Shown here in pieces: positions 612 to 42,317 of a DNA stretch of 42,319 nucleotides. A program made the position numbers and the translations under genes. A model generated the notes under the pieces. It was not told the origin of the DNA and made no database searches. It saw nothing but the letters and a program-made list of their open reading frames with translations. The stretch comes from Bradymonadales bacterium (GTDB taxonomy: Bacteria > Bdellovibrionota > UBA2394): the NCBI GenBank assembly GCA_007693605.1, contig REDG01000020.1, positions 1 through 42,319 of the forward strand. The letters run 5' to 3'. The number at the start of each line of letters is the position of its first letter. Position 1 is the stretch's first letter.

Positions 612-1682
612 ATGTGGATTGATGTGATAAAAGTTCTCTTGGGACTCGGTCTCCTCAGCATCTCGGCTGAGTATCTCGTCCATTCCTCAGTTAAAATCGC
701 CCAGACTCTCTCCATTCCCAAGCTCCTAATCGGGCTCACTATCGTCTCCTTTGGTACAAGCGCCCCAGAACTTGCCGTCAGCAGTATTGCCGCGCTGCAA
801 GGCAAGGCCGATATGACCTTAGGCAATATCGTCGGAAGCAATTTGTTTAATAGCCTTGTCATTGTGGGACTAACGGCTGCTATCTTTCCGGTCATTGTCA
901 GTCGTCGACTGTTGCGCTTCGATCTTCCTATCGCCTTTGGGGCGAGCCTGCTTGTGGCCTGGATGGCCTATGGCCGTAGCTTTGATCCACTCAAGGGCTG
1001 GATTCTCCTCGGTCTCTTGGCGCTCTATCTTGCAAGCCTCTTTCAGTTTTCAAAAAAACCAAAGCGCCAAGAAAGTCGGGCCATTGCAAAGTCTTGGAGG
1101 GGGTTGAGCCTGCAAGCTCTGATCTTCTTGGTGACTTTGACGGGCTTGATTTTCGGCTCTCAATGGTTTGTGGCCGGCGCCGCTAATCTGGCCCGAGCGG
1201 CCGGTGTAAGTGAACTGATTGTTGGTCTCAGCCTAGTTGCGGTCGGCACGAGCATTCCTGAAGTCGCCACCTCAATCTCAGCGGCCTTCAAGAGAGAGTC
1301 TGGCATCGCCATTGGCAATGCCATTGGAAGTAATATCTTTAACCTTCTGGGAGTTTTGGGAATCTCGGTCATTATCGCCCCTGCGAACCTTCAGGTGAGC
1401 CCTGAACTCTTGAGTCGAGACCTGCCCGTACTTTTGGCTGCTTCTATTCTTATGATTCTCGCTTTTCTCAGTCATCGACGCCTAAGCCAACGAGAAGGCG
1501 TTTTTCTGCTCCTGGCCTACGGCCTTTACGCCGTCAGCTTATACTTTTCGACATTGTCCTCTCATGCGTTGAGCAGTTGGAGCATGAAGCTGATCTACTT
1601 TTTGCTGGCTCCCAGTTTCCTTCTTTTCGTGCTGCTTCGAACTCGACAGAGAATGTCGAATCGCCGAAGATCGTCGGCATGA
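612..1682 (+). CDS. Calcium/sodium antiporter (CaCA/YrbG family)
   Basis: Two alpha-repeats (GTSAPE...GNIVGSN and GTSIPE...GNAIGSN) and about 10 TM segments. Confidence 0.93.
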   Translation: MWIDVIKVLLGLGLLSISAEYLVHSSVKIAQTLSIPKLLIGLTIVSFGTSAPELAVSSIAALQGKADMTLGNIVGSNLFNSLVIVGLTAAIFPVIVSRRLLRFDLPIAFGASLLVAWMAYGRSFDPLKGWILLGLLALYLASLFQFSKKPKRQESRAIAKSWRGLSLQALIFLVTLTGLIFGSQWFVAGAANLARAAGVSELIVGLSLVAVGTSIPEVATSISAAFKRESGIAIGNAIGSNIFNLLGVLGISVIIAPANLQVSPELLSRDLPVLLAASILMILAFLSHRRLSQREGVFLLLAYGLYAVSLYFSTLSSHALSSWSMKLIYFLLAPSFLLFVLLRTRQRMSNRRRSSA

Positions 1683-2098
1683 GCCCTCAAGACTTCTTTC
1701 GGAATTTTCGCGCGGATCGCCTTGATCTAGTGGAAGCCTTTTATGATCCCAAGATTCATTTTGTTGATCCTCTGGGGGAGCATCACGGCGTGGAGGCCAT
1801 GAAGTCTTACTACTCTCGACTCTATGAAAATCTGAAAGAAATCGAGTTTGAGTTTCAGGACGAATGGACGAAAGACTTTGAGTCTCTCCTATTCTGGCGG
1901 ATGAGAGTCATCCATCCGCGCTTGAATCGAGGCAAAGAGGTCTCTTTAGAAGGCCTCTCTCACTTTCGGTTCTCGCGCGAATCAAAGCTCTGCTTGTATC
2001 ATCGAGATTATTTTGACGCCGGAGCCTTTCTGTACGAGCAGCTCCCAATCTTGGGGGGCATCATTCGAAAGCTAAAGCAAGTAGCCCGAGGTCAATAG
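1679..2098 (+). CDS. SnoaL-like / NTF2-family protein
   Basis: FY...IHFVDPL and YHRDYFD...YEQLPILG motifs. The ATG at 1679 overlaps the upstream stop (ATGA coupling). Confidence 0.85.
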   Translation: MSPQDFFRNFRADRLDLVEAFYDPKIHFVDPLGEHHGVEAMKSYYSRLYENLKEIEFEFQDEWTKDFESLLFWRMRVIHPRLNRGKEVSLEGLSHFRFSRESKLCLYHRDYFDAGAFLYEQLPILGGIIRKLKQVARGQ

Positions 2099-2120
2099 TG
2101 GTCCACTAGTATTCGAGCCT

Positions 2121-3440
2121 CTAGGAGTTCTTGAGCGAAACTTGTCTCGGAACTTGAGTCCGCACTCGAGTTCCTTGTGCAACTTGGCTTTCGATTTTGA
2201 TTTTGCCGCCATGAGCTTCAACGACTAGGCGACACAGATAAAGTCCGAGCCCGTAGCCACCGGTATGTCGTCGCCTCGAAGCGTCGGTTCGATAGAAAGC
2301 CTCTGTAAGGTGCGGAATATGCTCTGAAGATACGCCCTGACCGTAGTCCCTCACTTCAAAGGAAACGAGATCGGGAGTCTCTTCAAGTCGAAGTTGAACC
2401 GCTCGCTCTGACTTCCCCGAATGGGTCAGGGCGTTCTCGATCAAATTCTTCCAAACCAACTTCATTCGAGTGATATCGCACGTCCAATCGAGACTCGATT
2501 CTTGGCAGTGAATCTCTAGACGATCCTTTTGAGCCTCGAATTTATCTTCCACGATCTGAAGTAGAATGTCCGAAGCTCGACACCGCTCCAGGTTGAGCTG
2601 AAAGTGTCGCGACCCCATATTCTCTGCCTCTAAAATTTCTTCTGTGAGCTTGCCCATTTCTTTCAGGTCCGCCACCAAGGCGTCTTTCACGCTTCGGTCT
2701 TTAATGAATTCAGCAGAGACAAGAGCCCTGGTCAAAGGAGTGCGCACCTCATGGCTGATCGCCAACAGAAGCTGCCTCTTCGATTCCAAAAGCTTCTCAA
2801 TTCGCGATCCCATCTCATTGATCTCGACGGCCAGCTCTCCTAGCTCATCTCCCTTGATCTCGGGAAGTCGCGTCTGAAAATCACCCCGACCCATTCGAAT
2901 CGCACCCTCACGAATCCAACTGAGAGGCTTTAAGGTTCTTGAGACAGCCTGATAACTAAAAAGCAAAATCAAAAACGCTAAAACTCCAGCGACGATCAAC
3001 CGCCAGGCTCTCCACTCGAACTCGTTCACCTTCGGAATCTCAAAAACAAAAGTGAATGGCCCTCGGGTAAAGAAGATAAAGTAGGCCGTTTTGGTGGTGA
3101 CCGTTGAGGGCTGCACCAGAGCCTGTCTTGCTCTCTCGGGAATTGGCATGTCCGCGTTCGTCTTCCAAGATATCTCCCCATGAAAAATAGCGATATTGAT
3201 CCGAACCCGATCACTAATCTCTTGTGCACGAGTCAAATTGGGGGGGCTTCCAATATCACTGGCCAAGTACTCTGCATAACGAGACAAGTTGTCCATGACT
3301 GGCCGATCTGGATCTTTCGATCGAGACAGCTCAATCAAGCCATAGGCCACAAGGGCGAGAGAGCCCATGCTCATCAGAAAGATCGTGAGAAGCTTTGCAA
3401 AGAGAGACTGAAATATTCGAGAACGATTTGTCATTTTCAA
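2121..3440 (-). CDS. Membrane HAMP-domain sensor histidine kinase (CpxA/RstB-like)
   Basis: Two TM helices, HAMP (GDELGELA), H-box ISHEVRTPL, N box NLIENA, G boxes DYGQG and GYGLGL. Confidence 0.93.
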   Translation of the reverse strand: MKMTNRSRIFQSLFAKLLTIFLMSMGSLALVAYGLIELSRSKDPDRPVMDNLSRYAEYLASDIGSPPNLTRAQEISDRVRINIAIFHGEISWKTNADMPIPERARQALVQPSTVTTKTAYFIFFTRGPFTFVFEIPKVNEFEWRAWRLIVAGVLAFLILLFSYQAVSRTLKPLSWIREGAIRMGRGDFQTRLPEIKGDELGELAVEINEMGSRIEKLLESKRQLLLAISHEVRTPLTRALVSAEFIKDRSVKDALVADLKEMGKLTEEILEAENMGSRHFQLNLERCRASDILLQIVEDKFEAQKDRLEIHCQESSLDWTCDITRMKLVWKNLIENALTHSGKSERAVQLRLEETPDLVSFEVRDYGQGVSSEHIPHLTEAFYRTDASRRRHTGGYGLGLYLCRLVVEAHGGKIKIESQVAQGTRVRTQVPRQVSLKNS

Positions 3441-4121
3441 CTAGGGCAAGAAACTGTAGCCAGTTCCCCAGACGGTTTTGATCACTTCTCTCTTAAGACC
3501 TGCCTGTTTTAGCTTCTGTCGAATTCGACTGATCATAATGTCAATCGATCGACTATAGACATCGGCCTCTACTCCCCGCAGGGCATTTTGAATCTCATCT
3601 CGAGAGAAGTTCTTCGAAGGATTCGTCGCCAGCACTTCAAAGATTTGATACTCGGTCGTCGTCATTTCAACTTCTGTCTCTTCAACAAAAAGTTTTCTTC
3701 GGTTTCTGTCGAGTCTAAGGCCGGAAAACTCAAGAAGATCTTTGGTTTGGGTTCGAAATGACCGCATGCGTCGATGCAGTCTCTCAATGCGAGCGACCAG
3801 CTCTCTCGGCTCAAAGGGCTTTGAAACATAATCGTCAGCGCCAATTTCTAAACCCACCACTCGATCCGCCAGCTCCCCGCGAGCGGTCAACATAATGATG
3901 GGAACTTGGCTCTTCTCTCGAATCATTCGACAGACTTCAAAGCCATCTCGCTCAGGCAACATCACATCCAGAAGTACAAAATCATAGGCCTTTTCTTTTA
4001 GCTTTTTTAAACCATGATCGGGATGTTCCGCCGTTTCGAGCTGAATGTCATAACGGCCAAAGTACTCGGTCAACAGGCTGCCAAGTCTCTCATCATCATC
4101 AATCAACAAAACTTGAATCAT
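3441..4121 (-). CDS. OmpR/CpxR-family response regulator
   Basis: REC domain (IDDD, LLDVMLP, KPF) plus winged helix (SRSIDIMISRIRQKL, KTVWGTGY). GGGAG SD before the ATG at 4121. Confidence 0.95.
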   Translation of the reverse strand: MIQVLLIDDDERLGSLLTEYFGRYDIQLETAEHPDHGLKKLKEKAYDFVLLDVMLPERDGFEVCRMIREKSQVPIIMLTARGELADRVVGLEIGADDYVSKPFEPRELVARIERLHRRMRSFRTQTKDLLEFSGLRLDRNRRKLFVEETEVEMTTTEYQIFEVLATNPSKNFSRDEIQNALRGVEADVYSRSIDIMISRIRQKLKQAGLKREVIKTVWGTGYSFLP

Positions 4122-13923: not shown

Positions 13924-14576
13924 ATGCGAACGCCATAGCCGCGACTAGGTTGCCGTTCTTCTGCAAAGCTCGACTCTTTAGAACGAACATCCAGAGCGAG
14001 CTGAATCTCTTTCTCACGGGCTTCCAAATCAGCAATCCTCTGACTCTGCTCATCAATCGAGAGCTCTAAGATCGCTACACTCTCTGTCAGCCAGTCTGAA
14101 AGCTCTGAAGAGGTCGTTGCCAATAAAAATCTCTCATAATCCTGAAAGCTTAAGAGAAAGCCACCCACACTCACGGGGTCTTCGCGCCAAACAAGATCGC
14201 CCTCGAAAGTCATTCGCTGATATGACCTGGACTGATAGGATTTAGAGAATCGAGCTAAGGCCTGAAGTCTTAGCCGAAGACTCTCCTCAGAAAAATCACC
14301 GGAATCAATCAAAGCCTCCAAATCTTCAAGTCTCTCTAGGCGGGCCTCCAGATCGCCTAGCCTTGAAAGCTCTTCATCGAGCTGACCCTCAACATTAGAC
14401 AGGGCGTGTTGCAGAAAAATCATATCCTCAGGAGTCAGTTCCACTCCTTCGGCCAGAAGATTCTCCAGCGAGAAGTTTGCCTCCGAGCTAGGCTCTTGGT
14501 CTGCCCACAGCCTCTTCTCAGCACTCAAAAGAAAAGAAGCGACAATCGTCAATGCAATAAGCCTAGTAAGTAACAT
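13911..14576 (-). CDS. Hypothetical secreted acidic coiled-coil protein
   Basis: Signal peptide, heptad L/E-rich helices, GAAGGGAGA SD before the ATG at 14576. Confidence 0.6.
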   Translation of the reverse strand: MLLTRLIALTIVASFLLSAEKRLWADQEPSSEANFSLENLLAEGVELTPEDMIFLQHALSNVEGQLDEELSRLGDLEARLERLEDLEALIDSGDFSEESLRLRLQALARFSKSYQSRSYQRMTFEGDLVWREDPVSVGGFLLSFQDYERFLLATTSSELSDWLTESVAILELSIDEQSQRIADLEAREKEIQLALDVRSKESSFAEERQPSRGYGVRMWLD

Positions 14577-14726
14577 GGAATCTCCCTTCACCAAATTGAT
14601 CACGACAAACCCTGACTCAAACTGACCCCCCTTCTAACGGAATTTTGAAAAAGACTCAAGCCACCCCAAAATATTTCAGAATTTTTCAGCACTTGGGCCG
14701 TTGGGGCATCATTGGCTCGGCAATCT

Positions 14727-15581
14727 CTAAGCGGATTCTCCGTTTCCGCTGGGTTTTGAGGGGTTCTGAGGCTTGTTCCGCTGCCGTCGGTACTCCACAC
14801 TTCCCATCCTGCGACTGGGCTGAGGATAAAGCTCCAAAAGATCATGAACCAAGTCGGGCAGATCAGAACTCACCTTCAGGCCAAGGGATTTCGCTTCTTC
14901 AAAGCTAATGGGGTGGTCATGCGTCCACCTTCCCTCACTCAAGACTCGGCTCAGCTCTTCAGCCCTTTCAGGAAGGCTTTTCTTCAAGAGAGATTCCAGT
15001 TGAAAGCGAATCTGTACCAAAGCCTTTTCTGAAATGTCGGCGTAAATGAGCATCTGATCTCCAATTTTTGCACGAGGCTTCTGATACAAAAGCCGTACTA
15101 AAGAGGCTGCCGGATACCCTCCAATCTGGGGATCGATCGGCCCCAGCACCGCGGCTGCATCCATCAGGATTTCATCCGCAGCAATCGCGAGCATGCTTCC
15201 GCCCGACATCGCATAGTGAGGGATCAGAACTCGAACCCGAGAGGGATGCCTCTGCAAAGCTTTCGAAATCTGAAGCGAGGCAAGGACTAGACCTCCGGGA
15301 GTGTGAAGAATCAAATCAATTGGCCGCTCAGAATCTGTTTGTCGAATGGCTCTCAAAATCTGTTCGGAGTCTTCAATGCTAATGTACTTAAAAAATGGCA
15401 GGCCTAAAAAACTCAAAGCTTCTTGCCGATGCACCAAGGTGATGACACGAGACCCGCTTTCTTTCTCGATTCGAGCCATTAACTTCTTTCTTGCCCGAGC
15501 CAGAAGCCTTTGCTGCAGAACCGGAATCAAAAAGATTAAGAGAAAGAGAACCCAAATCCATGCCATTCCATCACTCATCAT
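14727..15581 (-). CDS. SDH-family Clp-fold serine protease
   Basis: LHTPGG, AMSGGS, GPIDPQ, WTHDHPI (Ser-Asp-His order) and an N-terminal TM segment. Confidence 0.92.
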   Translation of the reverse strand: MMSDGMAWIWVLFLLIFLIPVLQQRLLARARKKLMARIEKESGSRVITLVHRQEALSFLGLPFFKYISIEDSEQILRAIRQTDSERPIDLILHTPGGLVLASLQISKALQRHPSRVRVLIPHYAMSGGSMLAIAADEILMDAAAVLGPIDPQIGGYPAASLVRLLYQKPRAKIGDQMLIYADISEKALVQIRFQLESLLKKSLPERAEELSRVLSEGRWTHDHPISFEEAKSLGLKVSSDLPDLVHDLLELYPQPSRRMGSVEYRRQRNKPQNPSKPSGNGESA

Positions 15582-35205: not shown

Positions 35206-35933
35206 CTGGCCGCACTCCTTTGGGATTGAACGAAACGAGAGACAAACTCTGAAGCTGGTCTCGACTGAAAATCTTCCAAGAGCCCACTCTGAACAATTTG
35301 ACCTTCATTCAACAAATAAATCTTGTGCCCAAGCTTGACCGCCTCCCGAAGGTCGTGAGTGACAAAAACCACCGTTTTTTCGAGTCGTCTAAAGATTTTC
35401 AAAAGATCCTCCTGAAGGTCCCCTCGAATCAAGGGGTCGAGAGCAGACAGTGGCTCGTCCATCAAGAGATAAGGCGGATTGAGAATAAGCGCTCGCATCA
35501 AGCTCACTCGCTGCTGTTGGCCCCCACTCAATTGAAAAGGGTATTTTTCTAGCATTTCTGGCTCTAGTTGAACGAGCTCTGAGAGTTCATCGATCCGGCT
35601 CTTTACTTTCTGTGGAGACCACGCCGCACAACGAGCCGGCAGCTCCACATTTTGAAAGGCCGTAAAATGAGGAAACAAAGAGAACTTTTGAATCACGTAA
35701 CCAAAGAGTTGGCTTCGCTCAAAGAGGGAATAAGCCGACAAGGGCTTGGTCTCTAAATGAACTTCGCCTTCATCCGGTCGGGTGAGCCCAATAATCATCC
35801 GCAAGAGAGTCGACTTTCCGCATCCGCTACTGCCCAGCAATACATGGGTTTTGGCCTCTTCGAACTGGAGACTCAGATCACTCAGAACCGGCTGAGAAGA
35901 AAAGGACTTAGAAACACTCTTTAGCTCAATCAC
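35202..35933 (-). CDS. Osmoprotectant ABC transporter ATP-binding subunit
   Basis: GSSGCGKS, LSGGQQQR, LLMDEP, VTHD motifs. Confidence 0.93.
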   Translation of the reverse strand: MIELKSVSKSFSSQPVLSDLSLQFEEAKTHVLLGSSGCGKSTLLRMIIGLTRPDEGEVHLETKPLSAYSLFERSQLFGYVIQKFSLFPHFTAFQNVELPARCAAWSPQKVKSRIDELSELVQLEPEMLEKYPFQLSGGQQQRVSLMRALILNPPYLLMDEPLSALDPLIRGDLQEDLLKIFRRLEKTVVFVTHDLREAVKLGHKIYLLNEGQIVQSGLLEDFQSRPASEFVSRFVQSQRSAAS

Positions 35934-36066
35934 GGCTTTTGACCCTAGCGGCTGGAGCGGAGGCTCTCAAGGCAAAGATCCCCTGAATTCAGTCCAAAAA
36001 GCCATCACAAGCTTGCTCCATCCTCAAGAGACGATAGCGACCTGAAGCTTCTAATCTGCTGGGAAA

Positions 36067-36085
36067 AGCCAACAGCCTGTTGGCT
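36067..36085. promoter_or_regulatory. Perfect 9-bp inverted repeat, candidate activator site
   Basis: AGCCAACAG-C-CTGTTGGCT, about 60 bp upstream of the sigma-54 motif. Confidence 0.4.
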
Positions 36086-36142
36086 GAGACCAACAAGTCA
36101 TCGCTCAAGAGCCCAAATTTGGACAATAGAGGGCCTTAGTTT

Positions 36143-36159
36143 CTGGCACGCAATCTGCA
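36143..36159 (+). promoter_or_regulatory. Sigma-54 (-24/-12) promoter
   Basis: CTGGCACGCAATCTGCA, GG-N10-GC with TGGCACG, 57 bp upstream of the tube gene ATG. Confidence 0.7.
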
Positions 36160-36216
36160 GTGATATGAAGCCAAAAGGCAAGCGAACAACGAAACCAATG
36201 AAAGGAACAATTGATA

Positions 36217-36645
36217 ATGAGTGAATCAGCTGAGGCATTTTCAGTAGCAAAGTTTGAAGTCAACCTCGAAGGTCTTCAGGCCAAGGACTTCTCGTCCGTG
36301 AGTGGCTTAGCCATGAGCACAGAGGCCCTTCCACTTCAAGAAGGAGCCATGCACGAAAAAACGACCAGAAAAGGGCGCACACGCTATCGCAATCTGAGCT
36401 TGAGCCGAATCTTTACCGGCGACAAAGAGCTCGTCCAGTGGTTTCAGCGCTGCGCTCGAGCCTCTCTCGAAAAACGATCGGGCTCCATCATTCTAAAAGA
36501 TGAAGATCATCGAGAAGTTCTGCGATTTAATGTTCGGCAAGCCTGGCCCATTCACTGGGAGGGCCCCGACTTCTTTGCTCAGCAACCGAATCAACTGGCC
36601 TACGAAACCATCGTCTTAGATGTAGAAGAGATTGAGGTGGAGTAA
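36217..36645 (+). CDS. Contractile-tail tube protein (T4 gp19-like, Afp1/Afp5-type)
   Basis: FSSVSGL, EG, NLSLSR, L.QW, KRSGSIIL.D, RFN..QAWP..WEGP, LAYETI.L; 142 aa. Confidence 0.88.
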   Translation: MSESAEAFSVAKFEVNLEGLQAKDFSSVSGLAMSTEALPLQEGAMHEKTTRKGRTRYRNLSLSRIFTGDKELVQWFQRCARASLEKRSGSIILKDEDHREVLRFNVRQAWPIHWEGPDFFAQQPNQLAYETIVLDVEEIEVE

Positions 36646-36647
36646 AG

Positions 36648-37634
36648 ATGGAGCTTGTTTGCCGCAAAGATCCAGACATCTTCGCCTTGCTCTACCGCGT
36701 CCAAAACGGCGACACGATCTCGCGCATTCTCTACCAGTTTCCGGCTCTCAAGAACAATCCAGAGGCCTACCGCCGAGCCCTGCAAAGCCTCAAACTTCTG
36801 AACCCACACCTGACAAATCTCGACCTTATTTTTCCCGGAGACATTCTCTTGTTGCCCCCCTTCACACGGTTTACACTTGGGGGAACTCTCGAAGCAGAAC
36901 TCATCCATCAAGCGCAAGAGATTCATGAAAGCCTTCAAGCGCAGGACCATAAAACAAAGGGCGTTCTCTTTGAATACTGGCCATCCATCTCGGCTGCGAT
37001 GAAACTCGCTCTACCCGGAAAAACCATCCTCGAAGCACTCGACGACCTGGCTGGACCTTTATCGAAAACAGCCTTTCAATATAGTCTTCGCCCGATCAGA
37101 TATATTCAAACAGATTTCTATCGCTTGCAGCAAATCTTCGTGCAGCAAACCCGTGAGTCTCTTCGAATTCTTGAAATCAACTACACACGAATCGAACAAC
37201 GATCGATCGTCGTCATCCAAAGCAGCCAAACCCGCTTCCGAGACTTCGCTCGCCACTTGAAGATCATGTTAGACTATGCCAAGGCTCTGCACTTGAAGAA
37301 ACTGCTGCCTATTGTAGGTTACACCCCAGAGGGAGTAGAAGGTATCGAGCTTGCACAACGAGGGCGCTATGCCGACTCAGCAAAAGTCGTGACCCGAGAC
37401 ATCATCATTCCGGTGGGCTCAGTCGGAATCGGAGCAAAGTGGGTGGGCCCCGCTTGCATTGCTAAAATCGCCATAGGAACTACCGCCGGAGGAGTTGGCG
37501 CCATTCCAGGCACAATCGGTTGTATTGGACTTGGAATCGTCACGGCCTTCGGATTAAATTCAAGCCTTCAATGGGGTTTTGACTGGGGATCCCGTAAGCT
37601 GGGCTTTCCCCAAGAAAGAGAAGTAGATAGATGA
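36648..37634 (+). CDS. LysM-domain protein with Gly-rich hydrophobic C-terminus (putative pore-forming effector)
   Basis: LysM YRVQNGDTISRI...LNP.L.NLDLIFPGDILLLP; C-terminal GPACIAKIAIGTTAGGVGAIPGTIGCIGLGIVTAFGL. Confidence 0.7.
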   Translation: MELVCRKDPDIFALLYRVQNGDTISRILYQFPALKNNPEAYRRALQSLKLLNPHLTNLDLIFPGDILLLPPFTRFTLGGTLEAELIHQAQEIHESLQAQDHKTKGVLFEYWPSISAAMKLALPGKTILEALDDLAGPLSKTAFQYSLRPIRYIQTDFYRLQQIFVQQTRESLRILEINYTRIEQRSIVVIQSSQTRFRDFARHLKIMLDYAKALHLKKLLPIVGYTPEGVEGIELAQRGRYADSAKVVTRDIIIPVGSVGIGAKWVGPACIAKIAIGTTAGGVGAIPGTIGCIGLGIVTAFGLNSSLQWGFDWGSRKLGFPQEREVDR

Positions 37635-38518
37635 GCTTGATTCAACTTGGCTTTTTTATGCCATTCGCTGTGATTGGTTTTCCATTGGTGTTTCTACTCT
37701 TTTTTGGATGGTATCCCTGTGGAAAGTATCATGAAAAGTGGCTTTCTCGTCTGAATTTTCCAAACCACGGTTATAAACCTGAGTTTTTTGTTTGGTTCGG
37801 AATTGCTTCAACCTACTTTCTCTATGCGAGGGCCTTTTTTTCTGACGCCTTCTCGAAACGCTATTTTGATATGAGCAAGAGAGAGTTTCGCTCAGAAGCG
37901 AACTTGATTATGAAGGTCTATGTTGTCATGGGTGCTTTGGCGACTTTTAGTCTTCCAATATTCGTCGCTCAGCTGCTTGCGTTTCCCATTATGACACTGC
38001 CCGATAGTGACCCTGACTATATAAGAGACGGCCTTCCAGCCTGGTCCACAATGACGGAAATGTTCAAACAGGCCTGGGAGCTTGGATTGGCCGAAAGCCT
38101 TTCTCTGCTTCTTCGTCTACTCGCCGCCATCGCTTGGATCAGCTGGCTCTGTATCATCAATTTCACACTACTTGGAATCTTCTGTGTGATGATCCCCCTT
38201 GATGACCGATGGGCTGGCATCCTTGACCCAGATGAAAAGGACTGGAAGGTGGTCCCCAATCTTCTCGGGCCCATAGGCTCTCCATACCGATTCCCCCTCC
38301 GAACCCTGGCCTACGGCCGAGCGATCGTCTCGAATCGCTATGCGCAGAAACGCTTTCAAATCTCGAGTGAGACCCTGCGAGAAAGTCTGAACGCCGCCCA
38401 GATTGCATTCTGCAGCCTTCTTGCTGCATGCAGCTATCTGCTTTGGCCAACAATTATCTTGATCTGGACTCTCGGCGCCACCGCTTTGCTGTTTCCTTCC
38501 CTCTTTGGAGCCCTCTAG
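37631..38518 (+). CDS. Internally duplicated membrane protein (putative immunity protein)
   Basis: ATGA overlap with the LysM gene; two similar halves (YARAFFSDAFSKRYF vs YGRAIVSNRYAQKRF), each flanked by TM helices. Confidence 0.65.
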   Translation: MSLIQLGFFMPFAVIGFPLVFLLFFGWYPCGKYHEKWLSRLNFPNHGYKPEFFVWFGIASTYFLYARAFFSDAFSKRYFDMSKREFRSEANLIMKVYVVMGALATFSLPIFVAQLLAFPIMTLPDSDPDYIRDGLPAWSTMTEMFKQAWELGLAESLSLLLRLLAAIAWISWLCIINFTLLGIFCVMIPLDDRWAGILDPDEKDWKVVPNLLGPIGSPYRFPLRTLAYGRAIVSNRYAQKRFQISSETLRESLNAAQIAFCSLLAACSYLLWPTIILIWTLGATALLFPSLFGAL

Positions 38519-38718
38519 GATATGGACAGCTTCTTCGATCCCCTGGTGGGCTCATCTTAGCCACAAGTATAAGGGCCTCAGAGAACTCCACCACTAGCCT
38601 CCGCCAAGCAAGCCCTCTGTCCTCCTAGACCCACTTTTTTGCGGGGTCTGAGACTTCAAAACTATGAAGAATATTGCGGAGCCTTGGCTATAGGGCCCCT
38701 GAATGACAATTTTTGTCA

Positions 38719-38734
38719 CGGCATGCTCTTTGCA
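38719..38734 (+). promoter_or_regulatory. Sigma-54 (-24/-12) promoter
   Basis: CGGCATGCTCTTTGCA, GG-N10-GC with TTGCA, 52 bp upstream of the SD-preceded ATG at 38787. Confidence 0.6.
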
Positions 38735-38786
38735 TTTTCAAGGCCTCGTGAGTGGAAAAATGGAATTGTCTGTGGAGGGCCCTAGA

Positions 38787-40658
38787 ATGCGATCAATGAA
38801 AAACTTGTTTCAAACCTCGATCTGGAGTTTTGGACTCATTTTTGTAGGAGCCTGTGGATCGGTTGACAAAAATGAGATCGGGGGTGCCAGCACATTTACT
38901 CAAGGTCGAATCCAGAGCTTTGAGAGAAAGATCCCAAACAACGAACAAAGTCCTGCCACCTACTCCGAAGAGCGAGATGAAAACAATCAGCAGCTGATCG
39001 TTAGTAACTTCGTTCACTTTGCTGGCAAAGACGCGCTCGTCACCGTCGCCCTGCCGGTGGGCTACCAATGTGTGCCCGGCTCCCTCAGCTATGAGCTCGA
39101 GTCCGAGTCTGGCGTCAGTCTTCAGTTGAACTCTGACTCAGCCAACTGTAGAGCGAGTCTTAGACTACAAGACCACCCAACCCCTCAAAAAGTAGGGGAC
39201 CAATATCCCGCATTGATGTCACTTGGAAAACTCGTCGCAACGGGATCAACCCGGATTTCAGGAAAGACTTACGAAACCGAAATTGAAACATCGCTCTACC
39301 TTCGAGTTCAGAATCGAATTCCCCCTGTCACCACCTACGAACCGAAGCCTGTAGTGCCTGCGGAGGATCTGACGGAAGCCATTCGACGACAGCCTCCTGT
39401 CATTGTCAACCTAACCCAGCCCAACCAATCGCAGAACGAAAATGCGCTCGGAGTTTCTAAGACTTTAAATGCGGGTGCGATTCCTTTCGAGACAGGCGGT
39501 CTCGCTGCAAGTACCCAGGCCTTAGTTCTGCCACAGAGCATTCAAGGCCCACTCTCTCAAACGATTTCCTTCGAAAGCCTGCGAACGGTAAATGGAAATC
39601 GAGACGCAGCCGCCTTCCAAACAAGTGAAGGTGCGTTAGCCAAGCTCGAGACTCTTTGCCAGATGGAAATCACCATGCCCTTTGTTGTAGAGGGCAGCGA
39701 GCAAGAGAGCACCCACCAAATCATCTTCAGAGATTTAGCTAACGAAGATCCCGAAACCTCGGATTCAGATGAAATCAAGAGCGTCAGCTACCTTCCGGCC
39801 GATAGCTGCCCCTTTGAATTGGCTGTCAACAGCGCCGAGGATACAATGTCGATCAATCTCAAAGCCTCCCCCTTAAGGGTCAATGGAAAAGAGTTTCGGG
39901 ACGCCGAGGGTAAACGAAGATATGCTTTACAAGGTTTGCCACCCATCTCTTTGCCTTCGGGCATCGCAGAGTTCATCTTTCATGTCTACTACTATCGGGC
40001 TGACAGCAGTCTTGACGAGAAGGGCGCCTATGATGAAGTGGTCTTGAAGATGCCTTTCACGATTAATGTTCCGACTTACAATGACTTAGAGATTCCTAAA
40101 TTCAAAGAAATCGGCCGAATTGGAGGCTGGGTTTACGGATATCTTGATGCTCACATGAGCATCTGGGAAGCCGACCGAAAGGCCAAGCTCTTGGGAGGTG
40201 CAAATTTCATGGAAGCCTATGTCGCCATGCCAAAGGACGAAGAGACAAACGAATTGCTTGGCAGCTCTCGACCCGACAACAAAAACCAGAACAAGTTCTG
40301 GTTGGGTCTGTTAAGCATGTGGTCGCATAATGACGACTCAGGCATACTGAGGCAATACAAATCGCCCGGGCAGCAGGGCACATCCAGCTTCGAGTACTGG
40401 ATAGATCACACCTCAGTCACTTTCAATAACTGGGTGAATAAGAAGGGAAACAATCCAGGAGGCTACCCTAATAATACAAGTCCGTTGGCTTGCGCCTCTT
40501 ATCAGAGAAGACAGGACGACAAGTGGCAATTGGCGAACTGCAATCGTCAGTTTAAGCCCTTTATTCAGATCAAGGTAGGATCCGGAAGCGTCCAAAATCC
40601 AGGAGGAGTCGGATCTGGCGGTGGAAATGGCCAGGGCAGCTGCCTCTTTGGATGTTAA
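38787..40658 (+). CDS. Lipoprotein with C-terminal C-type-lectin-like domain
   Basis: GGAGGG SD; lipobox FVGAC; C-terminal FWLGL...F.YW.D...FNNW...PNN...CA...W.L.NC...FI. Confidence 0.7.
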   Translation: MRSMKNLFQTSIWSFGLIFVGACGSVDKNEIGGASTFTQGRIQSFERKIPNNEQSPATYSEERDENNQQLIVSNFVHFAGKDALVTVALPVGYQCVPGSLSYELESESGVSLQLNSDSANCRASLRLQDHPTPQKVGDQYPALMSLGKLVATGSTRISGKTYETEIETSLYLRVQNRIPPVTTYEPKPVVPAEDLTEAIRRQPPVIVNLTQPNQSQNENALGVSKTLNAGAIPFETGGLAASTQALVLPQSIQGPLSQTISFESLRTVNGNRDAAAFQTSEGALAKLETLCQMEITMPFVVEGSEQESTHQIIFRDLANEDPETSDSDEIKSVSYLPADSCPFELAVNSAEDTMSINLKASPLRVNGKEFRDAEGKRRYALQGLPPISLPSGIAEFIFHVYYYRADSSLDEKGAYDEVVLKMPFTINVPTYNDLEIPKFKEIGRIGGWVYGYLDAHMSIWEADRKAKLLGGANFMEAYVAMPKDEETNELLGSSRPDNKNQNKFWLGLLSMWSHNDDSGILRQYKSPGQQGTSSFEYWIDHTSVTFNNWVNKKGNNPGGYPNNTSPLACASYQRRQDDKWQLANCNRQFKPFIQIKVGSGSVQNPGGVGSGGGNGQGSCLFGC

Positions 40659-40769: not shown

Positions 40770-42317
40770 CTAGGTATTCAAAAGCTGTAAGGCCAATTGG
40801 GGACTTAGGTTGGCTTGACCCAAGACCGAAACGCCCGCTTGTTGAAGAATCTGCATTCGAACCAAGTTCGCCGTTTCTTCGGCGATGTCGGCATCTCGAA
40901 TCTGAGATCGCGCACTTTCGAGGTTTTCCGTGGTGATGAGAATGCTTTCCCTGGCGGACTCCAGTCGACTCGTGGTGGCGCCAATCAAGGCCAATCGATC
41001 GAGTAGATTTGAAAGGGCGGTATCAAAAAGAGCGAGCATCTCTTGAGCTCTCTCTTGAGAGTCAATGCGAATATCTGTTTCAGCCACTTCTCTCTCAAAT
41101 GAACCCATGAGGAATAGGCTTTCGCCGCTGCCGGGAGCAATGATGTCTTTCAAGCCATCGCCATTCAAATCCATCCCAAGCACACCGAAGGCGGGAAGAC
41201 TGCCCGCACCTAGGTCAAAAGTTTGGGAGATTTTGAAGCTGCCTTCGCCATCATTGAGCAAGACTGTAAGTTGCGCGTCGAAGGTTGACTGAAAAGCGAG
41301 ATCGAGATGACCGTTTCCGTTCAGATCGGCAATCAGGGGATTTCGTCTTGCGAGCTCCCCCAGTTGAGAAGAGAAGTTCTGGCTAGAACTCATTGCTCCG
41401 GTTCCGTCGTTGAGCCAGATTTGTCCATTGGTAGATACGAAATCCATGGCACCGTTCCCGCTCAGATCAGCATAAAATCCGCTATCAGTTGGGCCAAAGA
41501 AAGCCTCAGAGGTGAAGGTTCCATCTCCGTTGGACATCAGCCTCACCGCCGTGTCGGCTCCCCAGTCCCAGGCTCGAAAATCGATCCTGCCATTTGCGTT
41601 TAAGTCCCCAGACTTTTCAAAGGTCAAGCTGTCCACCGAAATATAAGTGTCCGCTCCAAAAGTCATGGTGCCATCGGCTTGACTCAGTTGGGTGGTTATC
41701 ATGCCGGGCCCTCCAACCTGGCTAAAAGGGTCAACGATTCTCATGTACACCAGATCCGCTCTCCCGTTGGCGTTTAAGTCGGCGAGGGCAATGGAATGTC
41801 CCCGAGTGCTGCCAGAAAAGGAGGCAATAGCTCCCGCAAATGTCTCTAGGAGTTCAAAGCCTCCTGATCCATCATTAAGATAGGTGCGAGCCTCATCTAA
41901 ATTAGTCCTTATTGCCAGATCTAGAGAACCATCTCCGTTGATATCTCCCAGATCATAGTCTCTAGCTCCAGAGATGTGCTGAGTTTCGGTCCACAGGCCA
42001 GCTGAACCGACAGAAAAGATCCGCAGCCCAGTGCTGTCCAGCAGCACGAGTTCATCCTTGCCGTCTCCGGTCAAGTCATGAAACTCAGGCGCAAAAACGA
42101 CCGAAGTCCCCACACTCAAGACCTGCCTGTTCAATAGTCCACCGTTACCATCTGCCTCAAAGAAAATAAGCTCACCGGAGACATAGCTGACCAACAACTC
42201 CTTTCCGTTGGAAGTCTTAGAAGTAACCGCACTCCAGCCCAGGTTTTCATTTTGCTCAGACTGGGAGAACTTGCCGGTGGGCAAGACTTCTGTCTTGGTG
42301 AAGACCTCATCGGCTCT
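40770..42317 (-). CDS. Flagellin with FG-GAP/VCBS repeats in the variable region (5' end beyond the window)
   Basis: Flagellin C-terminal domain IGATTSRLE...ENLESARSQIRDADIAEE...QILQQAGVSVLGQAN..PQLALQLL, preceded by seven D(L/I)xxxGxxD-type repeats. The frame is open to the window edge. Confidence 0.88.
   Translation of the reverse strand, partial: RADEVFTKTEVLPTGKFSQSEQNENLGWSAVTSKTSNGKELLVSYVSGELIFFEADGNGGLLNRQVLSVGTSVVFAPEFHDLTGDGKDELVLLDSTGLRIFSVGSAGLWTETQHISGARDYDLGDINGDGSLDLAIRTNLDEARTYLNDGSGGFELLETFAGAIASFSGSTRGHSIALADLNANGRADLVYMRIVDPFSQVGGPGMITTQLSQADGTMTFGADTYISVDSLTFEKSGDLNANGRIDFRAWDWGADTAVRLMSNGDGTFTSEAFFGPTDSGFYADLSGNGAMDFVSTNGQIWLNDGTGAMSSSQNFSSQLGELARRNPLIADLNGNGHLDLAFQSTFDAQLTVLLNDGEGSFKISQTFDLGAGSLPAFGVLGMDLNGDGLKDIIAPGSGESLFLMGSFEREVAETDIRIDSQERAQEMLALFDTALSNLLDRLALIGATTSRLESARESILITTENLESARSQIRDADIAEETANLVRMQILQQAGVSVLGQANLSPQLALQLLNT

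Follow-up and report, generated by a model that had tools for sequence, protein, structure and literature searches.

The stretch analyzed here, hereafter the window, is a contig of 42,319 nucleotides (REDG01000020.1; C72 in our numbering) from a Bradymonadales bacterium (phylum Bdellovibrionota), whose assembly (GCA_007693605.1) comprises 2.19 Mb in 79 contigs and is ~90% complete. It carries a three-gene unit, or triad, coding for a tail tube protein of the type found in contractile injection systems (CIS), a LysM protein (g2), and a polytopic membrane protein (g3). The following features were assigned to the unit and its upstream region:

36067-36085, no strand: perfect palindrome AGCCAACAG-C-CTGTTGGCT, candidate activator-binding site ~60-75 nt upstream of the promoter
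36144-36159, plus strand: sigma-54-type promoter TGGCACgcaatCTGCA (-24 GG / -12 GC), 73 nt before the tube ATG
36217-36645, plus strand: tube gene, Cis1/Afp1 type, 142 aa from ATG; alternative TTG start at 36211
36648-37634, plus strand: g2, LysM protein of 328 aa and 36 kDa, predicted cargo/effector
36678-36863, plus strand: LysM domain of g2, residues ~11-72
37395-37562, plus strand: hydrophobic, Gly-rich hairpin of g2 (residues ~250-305), the turn flanked by Cys-x21-Cys
37631-38518, plus strand: g3, polytopic membrane protein of 295 aa, predicted immunity or partner protein

The list of open reading frames (ORFs) and direct reading of the sequence revealed that the three genes are co-directional. 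By direct reading, tube gene and g2 are separated by a 2-bp gap (TAA AG ATG), and the ATG of g3 overlaps the TGA of g2 (ATGA). An earlier note on this DNA had described a coupled unit of this kind behind a sigma-54 promoter, and its description was borne out: the coordinates, the gap, and the overlap were confirmed, the first gene encodes a relative of CIS inner tubes, the second a LysM protein whose Gly-rich hydrophobic hairpin holds two Cys near the C terminus, and the third a membrane protein with ~5-6 hydrophobic segments, while TGGCACgcaatCTGCA fits the -24/-12 consensus. The note had also stated that no sheath, baseplate, or spike gene lies within the 42 kb, which holds as well. The window yielded a single match to the tube family PF06841, not every window ORF having been scanned with hidden Markov models, and since the profiles for sheath (PF04984) and gp25 (PF04965) match only contig C16 genome-wide, the window is without other tail genes. 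Searches of the window against Rfam found no RNA family, PADLOC gave no match, and PHROGs gave weak tail-tube and LysM matches only.

The tube protein matched PF06841 with 96.2 bits (cut-off, 28.2; E = 1.8e-27; model positions 4-134 of 134) and TIGR02241 with 84.4 bits (cut-off, 62.4; E = 6e-24). Its best relatives of solved structure were the CIS inner tubes AlgoCIS Cis1 (7adz; 2e-13) and Anabaena All3324 (7b5h; 1.6e-12), followed by Pvc1 (2.7e-7) and Afp1 (1.3e-6). NCBIfam models scored it higher as CIS5 (62 bits) than as CIS1 (45 bits), both far under their cut-offs, whereas tube trees placed it with first-tube genes and not with second-tube genes.

A search of the whole genome revealed four PF06841 tube genes. 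One of them, the main tube (C16:57421-57843), lies in a complete CIS locus on C16, which encodes two sheath proteins, the tube, two AAA ATPases, a GPD-type hub, gp25, a baseplate-J-like protein, a CIS13-like protein, a VgrG-related spike, and a weak second tube. The complete set of sheath, baseplate, and spike genes thus exists elsewhere in the genome. No LysM core protein was detected in this main locus, and neither TssC nor Hcp of a type VI secretion system (T6SS) was found in the genome. Within C16:54279-78000, a radical-SAM activase-like gene, DUF1257, and a pentapeptide-repeat gene are located between the tube/ATPase and the hub genes. In another genome of the phylum (G188, locus L066), the CIS locus follows the gene order of C16, and the run of gene lengths around its tube is the same.

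The search for other orphan tubes uncovered two more, on C18 and C45, each followed by its own g2 and g3. A fourth triad was found on a metagenome contig of another organism by a scan with the tube alignment, which returned this one locus:

C18: tube, 348-aa g2, 146-aa g3
C45: tube, 334-aa g2, 273-aa g3
L065 (metagenome contig, other organism): TGGCACactcaTTGCA, 64 nt, tube, 351-aa g2, 138-aa g3, second g3 of 159 aa

In the Bradymonadales genome, the g2 and g3 profiles each matched exactly three loci among all ORFs of at least 50 aa, namely those on C72, C18, and C45. The g2 paralogs of the genome are 28 to 30% identical and the g3 paralogs 23 to 26%. On L065, the order of tube, LysM, and membrane protein genes proposed for testing is kept; the g2 protein is 26% identical to that of the window and was matched by the family profile A5 (described below) with an E of 1.5e-41, and g3 again overlaps the g2 stop codon (ATGA). 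Two separate g3 genes occur there where the window has a fused one. The genes flanking the L065 triad are of unrelated content and have no homologs in this genome. Since the arrangement was encountered at two other sites of this genome and on a metagenome contig, it is not due to chance. Four triads were found. None was present among 400 other sampled genomes of the phylum, scans of genome-contig collections and of viral contigs gave no further matches, and word-indexed homolog searches with g2, the three-paralog profile A1, and the 18-member profile A5 returned almost only sequences already known.

The orphan tubes have been kept intact. All are full-length and without internal stops, and the check for decay of the tube gene found none; they also contain no export or membrane segment. 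Across triads and organisms they are 62 to 66% identical, compared to 23 to 30% for their g2 proteins. The window tube shares 55% identity with the main-locus tube, 66% with the orphan on C45, and 63% with that on L065, and the tubes of this genome are mutually 44 to 66% identical. In tube trees, one group without internal resolution comprised the four tubes of the genome together with that of L065 and that of the main locus of G188; it was separate from the first-tube clade of other families (support, 99/98) and from the second-tube clade (100/100). The units on C72, C45, and L065 clustered with each other, with support of 85/98 for the tubes and 97/97 for g2, which indicates that triads were duplicated as units. 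The C18 unit was placed on long branches, and a single origin of the linkage with the tube was not rejected (approximately unbiased test, p-AU = 0.125 and 0.21). A predicted complex of tube and g2 received a score of 0.00, which counts neither for nor against an interaction. Two tube-domain matches each were seen in two ORFs of other genomes, in L068 (G337:C68, positions 1054-3132, 692 aa) and in L071 (G292:C64, positions 2595-3659, 354 aa), both outside recognizable CIS context in the stretch examined.

The g2 protein begins with the LysM domain, which matched PF01476 with 22.8 bits (cut-off, 20.9; E = 8.7e-5) over residues 16-70. With the family profile, LysM domains of solved structure were recovered from SafA (1.3e-11) and Kbp (5e-8), and 13 of 18 family members passed Pfam LysM at E ≤ 0.01. 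An AlphaFold2 model of the domain had a predicted local distance difference test score (pLDDT) of 80-92 over residues 11-70, with strands at 14-17 and 66-69 and helices in between. No signal peptide was detected in the g2 proteins. The domain is followed by a helical, poorly conserved middle region and by a C-terminal part rich in Gly, Ala, Ser, and Thr, in which Gly accounts for 18% of the last 110 residues of the window protein. Mean pairwise identity is highest, at 34%, in the LysM domain, compared to 17% for the middle and 23% for the C-terminal part. In 16 of 21 members, a pair of Cys 13 to 21 residues apart brackets the turn of the hairpin; one might speculate that it acts as a redox switch between the cytoplasm of the producer and the periplasm of a target.

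The C-terminal profile of g2 matched membrane-helix hairpins only (MCT1, an unrelated transporter, E = 0.0036), and the C terminus belongs to no Pfam family. The colicin-type pore fold suggested by the earlier note did not find support: colicin Ib was reached with an E of 0.044 by the full profile and was absent at E ≤ 10 with the C-terminal profile. A similarity to colicins was consequently dropped; no Pfam colicin domain was matched, and the AlphaFold2 model was too uncertain for a comparison of folds. A role of g2 as tube initiator or tape measure was set aside as well, as the protein is without a tube-like domain, has a membrane partner, and also occurs without linkage to any tail gene. 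In the Protein Atlas, the clusters nearest to g2 were unnamed LysM-bearing proteins of ~340-460 aa (score, 0.94); these and two further clusters (0.83-0.85), one with Gly-zipper_Omp in 36% of its members and one with PAAR in 61%, are leads only.

The g3 protein had no Pfam match. That of the window consists of two tandem copies of a two-helix unit of ~140 aa, and a profile of single units matched it twice, at residues 50-121 (1e-4) and 172-280 (2e-11). Single units consist of two hydrophobic helices around a loop of 65-82 residues with 9-15 K+R versus 4-8 D+E. By the positive-inside rule, this loop is predicted to face the cytoplasm.

The sigma-54-type element links the triads to the main CIS operon. 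An element of the form TGGCAC-N5-(T/C)TGC was present 40-75 nt ahead of the tube start in four out of four triads. The promoter of the main CIS operon, TGGCATgcctcTTGCT, lies 56 nt upstream of an ORF that is itself followed by the second sheath gene and the tube, and all five regions (four triads plus main operon) align on TGGCA(C/T)-N5-(T/C)TGC. Genome-wide, the sigma-54 search pattern matched 42 times versus ~8 expected by our own estimate from base frequencies, and 12 strong sigma-54 activator genes were counted. No sigma-70-like promoter was found in 35800-38900, where 2.0 were expected. The two metatranscriptome runs of the source study had 0 reads over 12.3 kb and provide no test of expression.

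Upstream of the main CIS operon promoter, at a distance of 118 nt, a perfect palindrome related to that of the window was identified:

C16:55446-55462: perfect palindrome CCCTACAG-G-CTGTAGGG

The common core, C[AT]ACAG.CTGT[AT]G, is confined to two sites of the 2.19-Mb genome, one 74 nt ahead of the promoter in the window and one on C16 (C16:55448), with the pattern having been derived post hoc from these same two sites. Both palindromes are also hairpin-like, and the one in the window scores as a terminator-like hairpin on the minus strand. A shared activator site for triad and main CIS operon would be one explanation, which we regard as a lead rather than a result. The 9-mer GCCAACAG was discarded as a common upstream motif, as it is not enriched genome-wide (22 found versus ~17 expected by our own arithmetic).

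To place the pair of g2 and g3 in a wider context, the 400 other genomes of the phylum were searched in six frames, with the three-paralog profile and then with the 18-member profile A5. Full-length g2 relatives (~150-370 bits over the whole model) were cleanly separated from LysM-only matches (<65 bits). The family was present in 14 of the 400 genomes, including two that were recognized on inspection (G188 and G039), and one of its members is named in its source as a LysM protein of a Bdellovibrionales metagenome-assembled genome. Genomes often contained 2 to 5 copies at 13-30% identity: 2-3 in G119, 4-5 in G190, 5 in G374, and two tandem pairs in G188. A g2-like stretch with six stop codons in G138 (C4:546108-546752) is either a decayed copy or an assembly error, and the same holds for g2 copies split over two or three frames in L051 (G166:C1). 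Each g2 inspected, except G374a, was followed by a g3-type membrane gene, whose products have 122-174 aa and two helices, or 292 aa in G202. Next to the second g2 copy of G119, the partner (L031, positions 14345-14818) has 157 aa, four hydrophobic segments, and no match to the g3 profile; partner types of g2 may thus be exchanged.

The distribution of g2 follows that of CIS tubes. PF06841 tubes were found in 21 of the 400 genomes, namely, in 13 of the 14 with g2 versus 8 of the 386 others. We inspected 12 marginal LysM matches in tube-negative genomes; all were LysM proteins with signal peptides, and none was a g2. Fisher's exact test gave p = 4.5e-15 on an earlier 11/1/10/378 table and 2.5e-6 within family f5, values that overstate the case since the genomes are related and not independent. 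In family f10, only 1 of 100 genomes had a tube, with a sheath gene beside it, and the same genome was the only one with g2 (5 copies). Among 13 relatives from the window's own family, none had a tube or g2. The g2/g3 pairs of other genomes are scattered among unrelated genes and do not lie in a CIS cluster. These results show that the pair is the older and wider, ancestral module, to which the tube was added in this lineage only.

By tube paralogy, promoter type, and phyletic pattern, the triad is an accessory module tied to the CIS of its genome. As to its function, we tentatively favor the view, which we hold to be quite possible although it stops short of probable, that triads are CIS-linked effector-immunity modules joined to a dedicated tube paralog and analogous to orphan hcp islands. 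The earlier note had proposed an extracellular CIS (eCIS) analogue of such an island. Of this proposal, the machine encoded elsewhere, the paralogous triads, the conserved synteny, the intact tubes, and the tracking of CIS-bearing genomes stood, while the colicin pore fold did not.

Each module would then supply a spare tube subunit, a LysM-tagged cargo that inserts into membranes, and a membrane protein that protects the producer. As g2 has no signal peptide, it would be synthesized in the cytoplasm, where it could be recruited to the CIS via its conserved N-terminal LysM domain, via the cognate tube paralog, or via both, in the way that Hcp carries T6SS effectors. Contraction would expel g2, whose Gly-rich hairpin might then insert into the membrane of the target. 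More speculatively, the LysM domain might bind the peptidoglycan of the target and hold g2 there. The g3 protein, with its conserved positive loop predicted to be cytoplasmic, would neutralize g2 in the producer and in sister cells.

That g2 is a CIS cargo and g3 its protective partner is suggested by several lines of evidence. The family is multicopy, fast diverging, and sometimes tandem or decayed, and its members share a conserved N-terminal domain but vary over the rest of their length; a membrane gene is obligately adjacent, as in glycine-zipper toxins; and there are precedents for LysM domains in T6SS loading and in eCIS toxins and, in haloarchaea, for toxin-immunity pairs outside the cluster. 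Gene order and co-duplication, in turn, suggest that the tube may carry g2.

Several observations weigh against this view. At 36 kDa, g2 is large for a folded protein in a tube lumen and, we presume, larger than the effectors carried in the lumen of Hcp. No recognized toxic domain, pore fold, or effector marker was found in it, as DUF4157, MIX, and PAAR remained without match and Pfam reported LysM only. For the whole protein, AlphaFold2 reached a pLDDT of 40 (3 sequences) or 48 (18 sequences), and the model is confident for the LysM domain only. The cytoplasmic location predicted for the g3 loop is as compatible with a partner acting on the producer side as with an immunity protein. One genome with g2, G142 (95% complete, 330 contigs), had neither a tube nor a sheath that we could find, and eight tube-bearing genomes were without g2. 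Outside this lineage, g2 pairs had no adjacent tube or other recognizable CIS or tail gene and, with one weak exception, no sigma-54-type promoter. Finally, according to a 2023 review (PMC10598620), no immunity proteins were known for eCIS toxins, so that the prior for effector-immunity pairs in this class is modest.

In its general form, the idea would be that tube protomers can be exchanged in the Afp/eCIS-type machines of Bdellovibrionota and that each protomer serves a single LysM-tagged membrane toxin, for which a separate immunity protein exists. We consider this extension doubtful.

The rival explanation that survives best, although we judge it unlikely, is that g2 and g3 form a membrane adaptor of the CIS. 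In this case g2 would be anchored in the inner membrane by its C-terminal tail and would dock the baseplate or tube with its cytoplasmic LysM domain; g3 would be its membrane partner and the orphan tube a docking piece, with the machine held at, or fired through, the membrane as for Streptomyces CisA. The topology agrees with this, because without a signal peptide and with the hydrophobic hairpin C-terminal, the N terminus of g2 would be cytoplasmic, and so would the conserved loop of g3. LysM domains are structural parts of contractile-tail baseplates (PMC10673891); the LysM-containing tail-tube initiator 9g8s was weakly matched by the g2 family profile, and no LysM domain was found in the main CIS locus. 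CisA itself offers a precedent (PMC12237407), and co-occurrence with CIS fits an adaptor equally well. However, 3-5 copies per genome at 13-30% identity, tandem arrays, and decayed copies are unexpected for a protein that binds conserved parts of a machine. Moreover, the pairs are scattered among unrelated genes outside the CIS cluster and are absent from eight CIS-bearing genomes.

Extracellular CIS require lysis of the producer for their release. A lysis or release cassette, in which g2 would be a holin-like protein causing membrane lesions, g3 its antagonist, and sigma-54 control would time both with particle production, is thus conceivable; the single g3 units have the size and the two helices of holins, and the co-occurrence with CIS and the common promoter type would fit. 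Yet a single cassette would be enough, whereas three divergent ones are present here and up to five elsewhere, no lytic enzyme gene lies beside any copy, the cytoplasmic LysM domain of a C-terminally anchored protein could not reach peptidoglycan, and a tube gene has no role in lysis. We regard this explanation as distinctly improbable.

Least plausible, to the point of being very improbable, is an autonomous sheath-less, tube-based device or envelope structure unrelated to CIS, an alternative raised in the earlier note and disfavored by the full sheath and baseplate set in the same genome: although no physical linkage connects the triads with the CIS locus, their tubes have no export or membrane segment and are closest to the genome's own main tube, the full machine is present and has the same promoter type, and g2 and g3 track CIS-bearing genomes.

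The triad is neighbored by a glycine-betaine-type ABC transporter on the opposite strand and by a gene for a lectin-like lipoprotein. The latter (38703-40658, plus strand) starts 185 nt after g3 and encodes a probable lipoprotein of 651 aa with a weak C-type-lectin-like domain at its C terminus (PF00059, 3e-4, slightly below the cut-off); no counterpart was present beside the triads on C18, C45, and L065. Positions 40770-42284 (minus strand), reaching the contig end, encode a flagellin-like protein of at least 504 aa, the N terminus of which is cut off by the contig end. Six FG-GAP-type repeats (PF13517, 3e-32), which constitute a beta-propeller part, precede a helical region of the flagellin C-terminal type (PF00700, 8e-18).

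How injection systems of the Afp/PVC type choose and load their cargo is only partly understood. If the favored effector-immunity reading is true, the joint transmission of a tube paralog and its cargo gene would suggest that cargo can be loaded by way of the tube, as established for Hcp of T6SS, and members of the g2/g3 family could be used to locate cargo genes at a distance from the CIS cluster. Since these machines are being engineered as protein-delivery tools, a cassette that naturally unites tube and cargo would also be a useful lead for their design. If, in addition, protomers are interchangeable, the triads would provide a tube subunit that is Hcp-like and specific for its cargo, the first one outside T6SS, and likewise the first family of effector-immunity pairs for bacterial non-T6SS CIS. 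The machines would then be used against other bacteria, be they prey or competitors, and LysM would keep the toxin attached to the target cell wall. The triads also hint that the CIS of predatory-type bacteria are aimed at bacterial envelopes.

Among known systems, Tse4 and Ssp6 of T6SS are membrane-depolarizing toxins of the glycine-zipper type that are paired with membrane immunity proteins. Membrane-depolarizing glycine-zipper toxins with polytopic membrane immunity proteins have also been described for EsxX/ExiCD (PMC12744356). Like these toxins, g2 has a Gly-rich, small-residue hydrophobic C terminus and an adjacent gene for a polytopic membrane protein; unlike them, it shows no match by sequence or profile, its content of GxxxG is modest (0-9 per 110 residues), and its secretion route would differ.

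With the eCIS-associated toxins (EATs; PMC11297309, PMC8213781), g2 shares the proposed role as cargo of an Afp-type machine, and LysM occurs in some of them, including tested ones such as EAT14 (PMC11297309). Unlike EATs, g2 is without DUF4157 or a known toxin domain. In the open-access literature and bioRxiv, we found no EAT module that includes its own tube gene and no account of an eCIS-type tube gene that is accompanied by a cargo gene. In haloarchaea, CIS-linked toxin-immunity pairs have been reported, some of them outside the cluster (PMC11566945). CisA (PMC12237407) and Sle1 (PMC13277306) are CIS linked, as g2 appears to be, and combine a cytoplasmic N terminus with membrane segments. 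Sle1 is a tape-measure-like, membrane-associated CIS effector, a relative of which forms a toxin-antitoxin system (PMC13277306). No sequence relation of either protein to g2 was detected, and CisA is single copy and encoded in the cluster.

An N-terminal LysM domain has been shown experimentally to load T6SS effectors onto VgrG (PMC10673891). Like g2, these effectors combine an N-terminal LysM domain with a variable C-terminal part and are followed by a downstream protective gene, but in that study LysM accompanies cell-wall hydrolase toxins in vgrG loci, whereas here it accompanies a hydrophobic hairpin and a tube. The same source places T6SS LysM domains apart from those of eCIS (PMC10673891).

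The closest parallel is provided by orphan or auxiliary hcp and vgrG operons of T6SS. The tube of the triads belongs to the gp19/Cis1/Afp1 family PF06841 and not to Hcp (PF05638), in a genome in which no T6SS was found, and g2 is here a candidate binding partner of the tube. A layout of spare tube, cargo, and protection is known for T6SS and, in the literature searched, not for eCIS-type injectors. As in those operons, a spare tube protomer is encoded off the main cluster, with genes for a candidate effector and a membrane protein behind it, in several divergent copies per genome. The g2/g3 pairs without a core gene in other genomes resemble the "super orphan" loci of T6SS, and the conserved tube paralog preceding a fast-evolving g2 reproduces the pattern of T6SS orphan hcp operons (bioRxiv 10.1101/2021.10.07.463556).

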